Positions 2,253-3,757 of a stretch of 7,617 bases of DNA are shown piece by piece; position 1 is the stretch's first letter, and every line of letters begins with the position of its first letter. The notes under the pieces were generated by a model. It made no database searches, was not told where the DNA came from, and was given only the letters and a program-made list of their open reading frames with translations. Location: IMG/VR virus record IMGVR_UViG_3300024294_000002; one strand, written 5' to 3'. This DNA comes from a virus. The translations under genes and the position numbers were made by a program.

Positions 2253-2462
2253 CCGGCAGGCGTCCTGCAGAGCTGCTAGGCGGGCGTCCAGGGTGGCGCC
2301 CTCTTCATCAAGCTGCGCAACGCGGCGGCGCAACTCGCGCAACTCACCGACCAACCTCCCGTAGTCCTCGACCAAGTGTTCGACGGCGCCCTGATCGTCA
2401 CGACCAGGGGCGTAGAGGCGTGCGTTACGTAACAAATATTCGGGAAGGTCTAGGACTGGCAT
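2235..2462 (-). CDS. Hypothetical 75-aa coiled-coil protein, convergent with and overlapping the 195-aa gene by 18 bp
   Basis: ATG at 2462-2460. Third-position GC is high, as in the other phage genes. The opposite-strand ORF (2249-2683) is Arg/Pro-rich and looks like noise. I see no clear Shine-Dalgarno sequence, so the start and expression are uncertain. Confidence 0.5.
   Translation of the reverse strand: MPVLDLPEYLLRNARLYAPGRDDQGAVEHLVEDYGRLVGELRELRRRVAQLDEEGATLDARLAALQDACRSILEL
2424..2433. promoter_or_regulatory. Third copy of the perfect 10-bp palindrome GTTACGTAAC
   Basis: The match to 1363-1372 and 1388-1397 is exact. It lies 27-38 nt inside the 5' end of the 75-aa ORF and about 25 bp from the dif-like site. 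Confidence 0.6.
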
Positions 2463-2486
2463 CGCATAATGGACGTTACATTAAAT
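2459..2486 (+). other. dif-like XerC/XerD recombination site 1 (attP candidate)
   Basis: GCATCGCATAA-TGGACG-TTACATTAAAT compared with E. coli dif GGTGCGCATAA-TGTATA-TTATGTTAAAT. The XerC arm matches 8/11, the central region 3/6 and the XerD arm 9/11. Confidence 0.65.
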
Positions 2487-2525
2487 CGCGCCGGGAGCTT
2501 ACCAGCATTGTCCCGACACGATTAA

Positions 2526-2553
2526 ACGTAACGTCACGGATATTATGCGAAGC
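2526..2553 (-). other. dif-like site 2, inverted relative to site 1
   Basis: The reverse complement reads GCTTCGCATAA-TATCCG-TGACGTTACGT. The XerC arm matches 9/11 and the XerD arm 7/11. GGCATCGCATAAT (2458-2470) and ATTATGCGAAGCC (2542-2554) are complementary at 12 of 13 positions. Confidence 0.5.
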
Positions 2554-2572
2554 CTTAGGCATGGGAATGGCA

Positions 2573-3757
2573 TCACAGTGCCGCAGGCGGCGGGTTTACA
2601 AGCGGATTGTGGTTGGCGGTCTGCTGCACCGTTTCGCCGGTCGACTCGCTACGCTCGCCACCGGCAAACGGCACAGCACCTAGCACGGATTCAGTCACGC
2701 CAACAGCCCGCGGGCCTGACCAGGGCGTGACCCATTCACCATTGAACTGGCAGCGGTAATCGAGTCCGAGGCTGACAGGCTCACAGTCGGCCATGGCCAG
2801 GTAGACGACACGCTGCCCGTCACCGATCATGACAACATCGACCATGTGGCCCTGGCCAGGCTCAAGGCGCTGAATGTGCCCGGTAACACGCCAGCGTAGC
2901 GATTCCTGGGGCGCCTGGGTCTTTTCGCGGGCCTTGGTGACGGTAACAGCCTGCTGCGCAGCCTGGGGCGTTTGCGGCAGCGGATTGGTCAACGCCAGTT
3001 GCTCGACGGACTCAGGTTCCTTGACGGCGCCAAAACCACTGGCAAAAAGGCCGCTGACGTACCAGATGCCGAGCGGAAACACGATGAACGGCGCGACGAT
3101 GGAGAAGATCAGGAAAGGCGAGCGCCAGATGGTTGCCCGCTTGTCCGCCCTACTCTCGTCACCCACATCGTCAGTGTTGCTCTTAGTTGCACTCTTGTAA
3201 TAGACCCACACCTTTTCCGAGTAACTATCGAACGTCGAGCGGATGAACTGCGTTTTGGGCGGTCGCTGGCCTTTGGCGGCACCCTCATAAATATCAATGC
3301 GGAACTTGCCAGACGCGCCGACAGAATCCAACTTATGGCTCTGATACGTCTTGTCAATCAACGTCAGGCAGAAGTGAGAGAGCTGATCCAGGTCCTGCGT
3401 TACAAAAATAACGCGAGTGGTCTTGCCGTTATCACCGACCAGGTGGCCATGCTCAGCCAAGAAAGCCTTGTCCTTATGCGGAATCTTGTTAGCCGCCATG
3501 CCTTTCGGCCAGCGGCGCCAAAGTTCGTCCAGGACGGCAACGCAACCCGGCGTGAAACTATCGAACAAGTCAGCATCCTCATACCACTTGTCATGGAGCT
3601 GGTGAATCAGTCCGGGGAATTCATCATGAGCCAGTTCGGTAAGCGGAATATTCGTAAATACATGCCGCCCTTCTTTCAGCGACGGCAAAATAACGTTTTT
3701 AACTACGCTGTAACTTTTGCCGGATCGAGGCCGTCCGGTGTAGGCATCAATTGCCAT
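2573..3757 (-). CDS. zot: Zot-family / pI-like phage assembly ATPase, 394 aa
   Basis: The N-terminus MAIDAYTGRPRSGKSYSVVKNVILPSLKEGRHVFTNIPL carries a Walker A motif (GRPRSGKS). A Walker B-like VAVLDE follows. A central TM segment (SPFLIFSIVAPFIVFPLGIWYVSGLF) precedes a periplasmic C-terminal domain. This is the typical Zot (zonular occludens toxin family) layout and position. Confidence 0.93.
   Translation of the reverse strand: MAIDAYTGRPRSGKSYSVVKNVILPSLKEGRHVFTNIPLTELAHDEFPGLIHQLHDKWYEDADLFDSFTPGCVAVLDELWRRWPKGMAANKIPHKDKAFLAEHGHLVGDNGKTTRVIFVTQDLDQLSHFCLTLIDKTYQSHKLDSVGASGKFRIDIYEGAAKGQRPPKTQFIRSTFDSYSEKVWVYYKSATKSNTDDVGDESRADKRATIWRSPFLIFSIVAPFIVFPLGIWYVSGLFASGFGAVKEPESVEQLALTNPLPQTPQAAQQAVTVTKAREKTQAPQESLRWRVTGHIQRLEPGQGHMVDVVMIGDGQRVVYLAMADCEPVSLGLDYRCQFNGEWVTPWSGPRAVGVTESVLGAVPFAGGERSESTGETVQQTANHNPLVNPPPAAL

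Follow-up and report, generated by a model that had tools for sequence, protein, structure and literature searches.

How does a filamentous phage that encodes no recombinase come to reside in a bacterial chromosome? The question is raised by IMG/VR virus record IMGVR_UViG_3300024294_000002, a stretch of 7,617 nt analysed here at its full length (the window; positions are counted from its first letter). In it, two inverted sites resembling dif, the chromosome-dimer resolution site targeted by XerC and XerD, recombinases of the host, lie between the gene for a Zot-like assembly ATPase and a small gene for a 75-aa protein. The initial annotation likened this pair of sites (site 1 and site 2) to the folded single-stranded phage attachment site (attP) of CTXphi. 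Our analysis bears this reading out: the junction with dif, the asymmetry of the two sites, covariation, a bias towards G·T pairs on the coding strand and tandem prophage arrays all point to a CTXphi-style folded attP, on which a single strand would be the substrate and XerC alone would catalyse the exchange. We consider it likely that this integrase-less phage uses the host XerC and XerD at 2458-2554 by the CTX-like single-strand mechanism in full. The absence of a recombinase gene from the window was also borne out. Pfam matches were confined to Rep and Zot, and in 10 additional open reading frames (ORFs) scanned against PHROGs and Pfam there was no integrase, resolvase or transposase.

Prophage contigs of this phage were retrieved by an exact-protein look-up of its Zot protein and came from three samples (SAMN09201453, SAMN09201853 and SAMN10351093; contigs L001-L003). 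In each of them, bacterial genes (cus/czc efflux, OprD and others) stand next to the phage. BLAST comparisons showed that identity with the phage runs from zot to position 2542, the end of the site 2 XerC arm, and stops there, at the junction GGCTTCGCATAAT/GTATATTATGTTAAAT, in which GTATATTATGTTAAAT is the remainder of the Pseudomonas dif. The composite sequence at this right junction, GCTTCGCATAATGTATATTATGTTAAAT, is a canonical Pseudomonas-group dif, and the attachment site of the phage is therefore dif; 16 native dif sites of the form NNTTCGCATAATGTATATTATGTTAAAT were present in genomes sharing the flanking island. A Xer/dif attachment site with the crossover at site 2 is near certain. Site 1 was never the crossover site in any prophage examined, and its use as a duplex, VGJ-type site, offered in the initial annotation as the simpler alternative, finds no place among the observed junctions, all of which lie at site 2. 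The annotation had also proposed a search for prophages at dif with hybrid ends; the right end was found in L001-L003, the left one in relatives only. For the window phage, the predicted left junction is host NNTTCGCATAAT followed by ATCCGTGACG. In contig L001 the sequence opens with a 55-nt repeat; in L002 a 100-N scaffold gap intervenes, preceded by a zot remnant of 88% identity; and L003 holds 1.28 phage units followed by host DNA.

Searching for homologues of Zot and the 75-aa protein led to relatives in six assemblies, in all of which they lie at dif: five isolate genomes, those of P. daroniae, P. anguilliseptica, P. segetis and two strains of A. alcaligenes, and one metagenome-assembled genome. 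The 5′ arm of the hairpin was used at every junction, and at least two copies were present in all six genomes. At the left junction (P. daroniae, P. segetis, A. alcaligenes and the metagenome-assembled genome) the host XerC arm is followed by the long central region of the phage and then by the hairpin, while at the right junction the phage XerC arm is followed by the remainder of dif. The left junction in P. daroniae reads host TTTGGTTCGCATAAT/GGGTAACGTTACG, then the hairpin, and the second of at least two copies starts at TTGGCTTCGCATAAT/GGGTAACG. Two copies identical at 7622 of 7622 positions, with host DNA on both sides, were found in the metagenome-assembled genome, where the left, inter-copy and right junctions are aatattCGCATAAT/GATCAGGG, ggcttCGCATAAT/GATCAGGG and ggcttCGCATAAT/GTATATTATGTTAAAT, respectively. 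The P. segetis array consists of one heterologous phage, three copies of one phage and then dif; two copies that were compared are identical (7542/7542), and the 5′ arm of their hairpin is nearly the same as that of the window. In A. alcaligenes, 2 plus 1 copies are present; one of the strains has a different XerC arm (ACCCATAAT), to which both its own 3′ arm (GTTATGGG) and the dif of that locus correspond. In P. anguilliseptica (CP156749; L113-L115), an array that ends in dif spans about 995-1047 kb and comprises no fewer than five inovirus prophages in tandem, of two or three types. This last array is interrupted by an IS66-family element and recalls the CTX/RS1/TLC arrays of Vibrio cholerae. 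PMBT54, a relative that does not integrate, has no such pair of sites (PMC10534721).

The features of the attachment region are collected in Table 1. Site 1 matches E. coli dif at 20 of 28 positions, as the initial annotation had stated, and the Pseudomonas-type dif GATTCGCATAATGTATATTATGTTAAAT at 21 of 28, each of its arms agreeing with dif at 9 of 11. The reverse complement of site 2 as first delimited (2526-2553, in an 11-6-11 register) matches E. coli dif at 18 of 28 positions and the Pseudomonas-type dif at 19 of 28. Site 2 is thus dif-like and inverted, as described, but its register is better drawn as in Table 1. The outer XerC-arm halves (2458-2470 and 2542-2554) are complementary at 12 of 13 positions, again in line with the annotation. 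The motif TCGCATAAT occurs only twice in the window, at 2462-2470 (plus strand) and 2542-2550 (minus strand); 0.04 occurrences are expected, and none of 200 shuffles held two.

Table 1. Features of the attachment region and adjoining genes (positions and strands of the window).
Feature	Position	Strand	Sequence or composition	Basis
Whole attP hairpin	2458-2554	minus	97 nt, imperfect	DNA fold, family fold, covariation
Site 2 XerC-binding arm (attP1-like, 5′ arm)	2543-2553	minus	GCTTCGCATAA	10/11 to Pseudomonas-type dif
Crossover interval common to phage and host dif	2542-2551	minus	TTCGCATAAT	BLAST against L001-L003, junctions
Site 2 extended central region	2532-2542	minus	TATCCGTGACG (11 nt)	Fold, central-region lengths in the family
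Site 2 XerD-like arm	2521-2531	minus	TTACGTTTAAT	9/11 to dif TTATGTTAAAT
Site 1 (attP2-like, 3′ arm on packaged strand)	2459-2486	plus	GCATCGCATAATGGACGTTACATTAAAT	Canonical 11-6-11
Site 1 XerC arm	2459-2469	plus	GCATCGCATAA	
Site 1 central region	2470-2475	plus	TGGACG	
Site 1 XerD-like arm	2476-2486	plus	TTACATTAAAT	
Apical extension	2484-2523	minus	13-bp stem (2511-2523 with 2484-2496), 14-nt apex (2497-2510)	Fold, alignment
75-aa helical protein gene	2235-2462	minus	phrog_13909	PHROGs, AlphaFold2 (AF2)
Zot-like assembly ATPase gene	2573-3757	minus	Last gene of morphogenesis operon	PF05707

DNA folding of the region on both strands, which the annotation had proposed as a check, gave structures far more stable than those of shuffled sequences, the minus strand being the best (-32.7 kcal/mol, z -7.55, vs. 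-27.3 kcal/mol, z -4.69, for the plus strand). The forked hairpin anticipated in the annotation did not appear, as all folds gave one continuous stem-loop. Read 5′ to 3′ on the minus strand, the stem begins with GGC.TCGCATAAT, followed by the bulge ATCC, one base pair, a bulged T, an 11-bp stem (GACGTTACGTT), the 13-bp stem and the 14-nt apex. The mismatch of the central regions noted in the annotation is an asymmetric bulge in which only site 2 has unpaired bases (ATCC at 2538-2541, T at 2536). As the opposite strand runs through without a break, site 2 is organized as 11+11+11 and site 1 as 11+6+11.

To see how far this organization extends, we turned to related viral sequences. A scan of IMG/VR with the pattern GGCTTCGCATAAT-N55-85-TTATGCGA returned 29 viral contigs, with about one expected by a rough estimate. 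Wherever a contig has a detectable zot or rep, the pattern falls on its coding strand, except in L097 and L098, where it lies on the other strand; as the asymmetry of the arms is flipped there too, the site with the long central region is always the 5′ arm of the coding strand. All 31 distinct related sequences fold alike, and in all 31 the coding strand is more stable than its complement. Covariation statistics were computed on an alignment of 30 distinct hairpins (A1), whose consensus comprises 32 pairs, 14 of them with compensatory changes. Paired cells made up 97% of the alignment vs. 83.5% in shuffles and 29-40% in slid controls. Cells with a double change numbered 120, compared with 38.8±5.9 in shuffles, none of which (0/500) reached 120. 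Among the non-Watson-Crick cells on the coding strand, 101 were G·T or T·G and 5 were A·C or C·A. A duplex palindrome would give no such G·T bias, which indicates that selection acts on pairing in the coding-sense single strand or in the corresponding transcript.

The same alignment revealed which parts of the hairpin are held constant. The site 2 XerC arm is invariant across the 30 hairpins, and the bottom strand of the central region measures exactly 6 nt in every one of them, with 8-11 nt on the top strand. The inner XerD motif TTAYG is nearly invariant, whereas the outer part of the stem covaries freely with the other arm; this fits recognition of the arms by a protein better than mere pairing. 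At the start of the central region (alignment columns 14-16 and 85-87), at least one strand begins with TG, as in dif TGTATA, in 30/30 hairpins, and the case of neither strand doing so never occurs (Fisher p = 2e-5, with relatedness ignored). This rule is broken by the P. segetis prophage (TAT on one strand, CGG on the other) and was hence not relied on. One 13.7-kb viral contig (L079) contains two tandem, non-identical phages, 92-97% identical in parts, whose hairpins differ solely in the bulged central region (GTCCTGACC vs. GTGATGGCC); going by this pair, the sequence of the bulge appears free to vary.

These observations can be combined into a mechanism. In known inoviruses the packaged strand has the same sense as the structural genes, and from the gene orientation we infer that the minus strand of the window is both the coding and the packaged (+) strand; its base composition (T 25.5%, A 19.4%) lends this weak support. 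In the packaged single strand, site 2 would pair with the inverted site 1 as the stem of the hairpin and rebuild one duplex Xer target, with the XerC arm GCTTCGCATAA over TTATGCGATGC and the XerD-like arm TTACGTTTAAT over ATTTAATGTAA. The arms would stand at the canonical distance of 6 nt on the bottom strand, and the top strand would carry 5 extra, bulged nucleotides. XerC would cut the top strand at the border of its arm with the central region (2543/2542) and swap it with the top strand of the host dif, while the unmatched central region would stop the second, XerD-mediated exchange. Replication would then turn the junction into a prophage. Its zot-side end would be a regenerated, functional dif, composed of the phage XerC arm and host GTATA-TTATGTTAAAT, and its other end would consist of the host XerC arm and the long central region of the phage, followed by the rest of the hairpin as duplex. 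Since the duplex hairpin end would no longer be a usable Xer site, integration is expected to be irreversible, and rolling-circle replication across tandem copies would yield new phage DNA. Of this scheme, the fold, the dif junction at site 2 and the conserved, covarying hairpin were observed, as were the left junction and tandem arrays in relatives; the packaged strand, the single-stranded substrate, catalysis by XerC alone and irreversibility are inferred.

The work on attP(+) of CTXphi and RS1 reportedly goes back to Val et al. 2005 and is covered in reviews. In the CTXphi class, attP(+) is a folded structure of about 150 nt with an inverted pair of sites, attP1 (12-bp central region) and attP2 (5-7 bp); the (+) single-stranded DNA is the substrate, XerC alone performs the first exchange, replication completes the irreversible reaction, and virions arise by rolling-circle replication from tandem prophages (PMC4246890, PMC3089051, PMC3442271). 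On its coding strand, CTXphi has the order ctxB, attP1, spacer, inverted attP2, divergent rstR and rstA; in the window, zot is followed by site 2 and site 1, and then by divergent regulators and rep. Neither phage encodes an integrase, and in both inoviruses a pair of inverted dif-like sites separates the end of the morphogenesis operon from a divergent regulator. The central regions measure 12 nt (5′ site) and 7 (5-7) nt in CTXphi and 11 and 6 nt in the window. Folded with the same tool, CTXphi gave a 15-bp XerC-arm stem, a 5-nt bulge on the 5′ side, an XerD-arm stem and a forked apex (z -7.85); the 5-nt bulge of the 5′ side, next to the XerC arm, is common to both phages. Also shared are the crossover at the XerC-arm border, the new dif at the zot/ctxB end and, for the family of the window, tandem arrays. 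Some members of this family have XerD arms (TTATGTTGAG and (C)TATGTTACG) close to those of CTXphi attP1 and attP2.

There are differences as well. The window phage has a host of the Pseudomonas group and the XerC arm TTCGCATAA; its site is a single stem-loop of 97 nt vs. the forked double hairpin of about 150 nt with a 90-nt spacer in CTXphi; its stem extends beyond the XerD arm to a conserved apex, and the 75-aa gene abuts the site. We claim no homology between the proteins of the two phages beyond the Zot and Rep domains. YpfPhi of Yersinia pestis and CUS-1Phi of E. coli K1, which are listed as members of the CTX class (PMC4246890 table; PMC3089051), resemble the window phage as filamentous prophages at dif outside Vibrio whose attP features are judged from sequence to be compatible with single-strand integration, the level of evidence that applies to the window too, and differ in having enterobacterial hosts and another dif arm; we compared them by their published descriptions. 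A broader parallel is offered by integron attC sites (PMC4792948), where a tyrosine recombinase likewise takes a folded single strand with extra-helical bases as its substrate, replication resolves the exchange of one strand and structure is conserved above sequence; in contrast, the recombinase is IntI, the sites are unrelated to dif, and cassettes rather than phage genomes are moved. The features of the CTX-type class that can be read from sequence are all present in the window phage or its relatives, and we place this Pseudomonas-group phage in that class.

Several points weigh against a folded single-strand attP. The left junction of the window phage was not recovered, as the look-up of the 75-aa protein gave only contexts with zot upstream, and the apparent tandem in L003 could have arisen when the assembler passed through mixed replicative form and prophage. 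The assignment of the packaged strand depends on gene orientation and the excess of T over A. At their starts, the central regions (TAT on the top strand, TGG on the bottom one) each agree with dif TGT at 2 of 3 positions. Moreover, a double-stranded exchange at site 2 would leave the identical prophage sequence. It could be that the duplex replicative form recombines with dif through one site, 2 or 1, with XerC acting first and the hairpin irrelevant to integration. Phages of the VGJphi type (VGJ, VEJ, VSK and fs2), frequent among Vibrio inoviruses (PMC3089051 Table III), are integrase-less and XerC-first at dif as well and have a similar XerC arm (ACTTCGCATTA vs. GCTTCGCATAA), and site 1 is of canonical 11-6-11 form with both arms at 9/11 to dif. 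Yet such phages carry a single 29-bp duplex site with a 7-bp central region, the XerC-side bases of which are those of dif, and integrate reversibly, while the window has two inverted sites, of which the one used has a central region of 11 nt (8-11 nt in 30/30 relatives vs. 7 in the VGJ type; PMC3089051). On these grounds VGJ-type membership was rejected. The equivalent attP1 of CTXphi, with 12 bp, is reported to be unfit as a duplex substrate (PMC4246890). A duplex-only model also leaves unexplained the inverted second site, its exact 6-nt spacing, the compensatory changes and the 20:1 excess of G·T over A·C, and the tandem copies in all six genome assemblies are as expected under blocked excision. 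With site 1 absent from the junctions, we regard duplex integration as unlikely.

The hairpin may instead be mainly another element, one that signals packaging, starts minus-strand replication or, within an mRNA, controls the 75-aa gene, with its likeness to Xer sites secondary and only the XerC arm needed for integration. It lies after the last morphogenesis gene, where Ff phages hold their packaging signal and minus-strand origin, and the start codon of the 75-aa gene falls in the base of the stem. The strand-specific G·T pairs would suit any structure of the (+) strand or of a transcript, and this asymmetry, being also expected from selection on an RNA hairpin in a zot-to-75-aa transcript, belongs among the points that count against the folded attP. 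So do the invariant apex residues, which are unrelated to dif and unexplained by Xer recombination; the hairpin may have a second role. The base of the stem is nevertheless the crossover site itself, and the 3′ arm keeps its XerC arm, the exact 6-nt spacer and TTAYG in 30/30 hairpins, none of which mere pairing needs. Architecture and polarity match those of CTXphi attP(+), neither an intrinsic terminator nor an Rfam family was found at the hairpin, and the integrative inoviruses of Xanthomonas have a separate packaging hairpin of 20-26 nt near the origin (bioRxiv 10.1101/2023.12.30.573655). We find it quite improbable that the hairpin is mainly such an element; a dual role, with attP at the base and another function at the apex, is compatible with the CTX-like mechanism. 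Most improbable of all is a TLC-type duplex site whose XerC arm is good and whose XerD arm is poor, at which a phage activator, the 75-aa protein as an XafT-like factor, would promote an XerD-first exchange. A small conserved protein does adjoin the site in 28 of 29 viral contigs, and site 2 in the 11-6-11 register has a weak XerD arm (TGACGTTACGT). However, TLC-type sites have the central region of dif, permitting both exchanges (PMC5357621), whereas TATCCGTGACG bears no relation to TGTATA and has the wrong length. No Pfam domain or structural match was found for the 75-aa protein, which two hairpin-bearing relatives lack, and from the reversible integration of the TLC type one would not predict that tandem arrays are obligatory. 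Membership in this type was rejected on account of the central region and because the domain matches of the window are Rep and Zot only.

The folded attP bears directly on the integrase-less Pf prophages of P. aeruginosa (groups 4-7). One of them, Pf 36-2 (OR621019), belongs to the same phage family by Zot (38% identity) and has the same two-site hairpin (-40.7 kcal/mol, z -7.35), which, unlike that of the window, is about 120 nt long with a branched apex and is not accompanied by the 75-aa gene. For these prophages, direct repeats of 11-12 bp and an 'intergenic region' as integration site were described by Evseev et al. 2023 (PMC10675462), in whose text a search brought up no attP or hairpin. 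The terminal direct repeats, TTCGCATAATGT, are the dif XerC arm, and the hairpin thus explains the repeats in the intergenic region. If the CTX-like mechanism holds, Pf prophages would integrate irreversibly, need tandem copies for virion production and regenerate dif for later arrivals.

Integration of a single strand at a folded Xer site has so far been shown for CTXphi/RS1 alone; for YpfPhi and CUS-1Phi it has been put forward on the basis of sequence. Full-text literature searches, which left most subscription journals uncovered, turned up no report of Pseudomonas inoviruses with a folded attP of two sites, and this large phage family appears to be undescribed in these terms. The CTX-type design is seen here in diverse and abundant inoviruses of the Pseudomonas group, including integrase-less P. 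aeruginosa Pf prophages from cystic fibrosis patients. The covariation and the 20:1 ratio of G·T over A·C indicate a fold selected on one strand; we have not met such an argument for CTXphi, although no search for it was made. The natural series of hairpin variants should also be useful for dissecting what XerC and XerD need on a folded substrate. We see the main import of the data in the breadth of the family, the strand-specific covariation and the unexplained, conserved apex with its adjoining 75-aa gene.

The 14-nt apex holds a predicted 3-bp stem, and in the 30 aligned hairpins its invariant residues are GGA at the top of the 5′ side, T in the loop and CC..G on the 3′ side. A second function of the apex, for example as a packaging or complementary-strand signal, is possible. 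The 75-aa gene has its ATG (2460-2462) inside the base of the hairpin and lies directly 3′ of it in 28 of the 29 viral contigs and, among the six genome assemblies that contain relatives, in five; the adjacency was noted in the window, L079-L106, L113, L116 and L120-L124. It is kept even though Zot and Rep range from 24-98% identical to undetectable. Two phages with the hairpin, Pf 36-2 and one A. alcaligenes prophage, are those that lack the gene. The AF2 model of the protein (predicted local distance difference test, pLDDT, 92) consists of a short helix and a 52-residue helix. No Pfam domain passed the threshold, sequence matches in the PDB were of coiled-coil-like kind only, and Foldseek gave no match below E = 1. 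Judged by this gene order, hairpin and 75-aa gene seem to be passed on jointly, as one module. It is possible, although in our opinion rather doubtful, that they make up a portable cassette for single-strand integration, exchanged among Pseudomonas inoviruses whose replication and assembly modules are unrelated; the protein would then be a new accessory factor at the folded site, and the apex would double as a packaging or complementary-strand signal. In that case, the 75-aa protein might stabilise or mask the hairpin, steer XerC/XerD or link integration to packaging via the apex.

As to the rest of the genome, the first 127 nt of the window recur at its end, so the window, a JGI metagenome contig (L004), represents a circular inovirus genome with a unit of 7,490 nt. 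Its minus strand carries a typical inovirus gene set (ORF list, Pfam and PHROGs): Rep with Phage_CRI/G2P_X_C domains (Pfam), a 121-aa protein in the usual position of the single-strand DNA-binding protein, a 44-aa protein without a domain match where the major coat protein would be expected, an adsorption-like protein of 459 aa, a small Ace-like protein and Zot. On the coding strand, 19 nt separate the zot stop codon from the hairpin downstream. Four small ORFs have the opposite orientation. A whole-genome megablast of the window gave no match among GenBank phages. The sole match of the 121-aa protein is a PHROG of unknown function, with no match to CTX_RstB. RstB is a single-strand DNA-binding protein reported to be crucial for CTXphi integration (PMC3089051), and one A. 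alcaligenes relative with the same attP type encodes a CTX_RstB domain protein (PF07459; L122, 12969-13277).

The host of the window phage can be named only loosely. The nearest prophage flank is 99.6% identical to Ectopseudomonas composti, and a Zot-based scan of species-representative genomes gave nothing. A second scan of these genomes, with the flanking outer-membrane efflux protein, led to a copper-resistance island (copper/cation efflux: outer-membrane protein, CusB-like, CusA-like and OprD; L001 7546-8380, L010-L062) that is widespread at about 93% identity across many species of the Pseudomonas group, which limits the assignment. In at least 16 genomes the island lies 20 bp to 6 kb from dif, and in L001 its edge beside dif contains three GATTATARAG repeats; it may be a dif-associated mobile island. 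To the left of the prophage in L002 (1780-1954 and 855-1241) we found an 88%-identical fragment of a zot 3′ end, which is probably a decayed earlier prophage of an array, and farther left a gene for a ParS/Xre-type antitoxin.

The initial annotation further supposed that a phage regulator binding TTACG-type half-sites could modulate recombination. The motif is truly over-represented, CGTTACG occurring 11 times in the window vs. about 1 expected and ACGTAACG 7 times vs. 0.26, and one CGTTACG-type copy sits in the XerD-like arm of site 2. Several copies fall in coding repeats, some of them in a 195-aa ORF, or in conserved LLRN codons of the 75-aa gene. Enrichment outside the hairpin was seen only in the window, L083 and L090, and in none of 12 other phages with TTACG-type arms. 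The 13-nt stretch of site 2 said to recur at 1329-1341 is present there, but at chance level (1 observed vs. 0-5 in shuffles). Because most phages with TTACG arms lack the enrichment and the recurrence does not exceed that of shuffles, the link to a regulator is unsupported. Apart from this, three direct repeats GTTGATTTATCGTTACG and palindromes CGTTACGTAACG (1305-1404, 1795-1807, 1957-1969 and 2423-2434) overlap a TATAAT at 1398-1403, an arrangement that suggests a putative operator/promoter region of a divergent regulatory operon.

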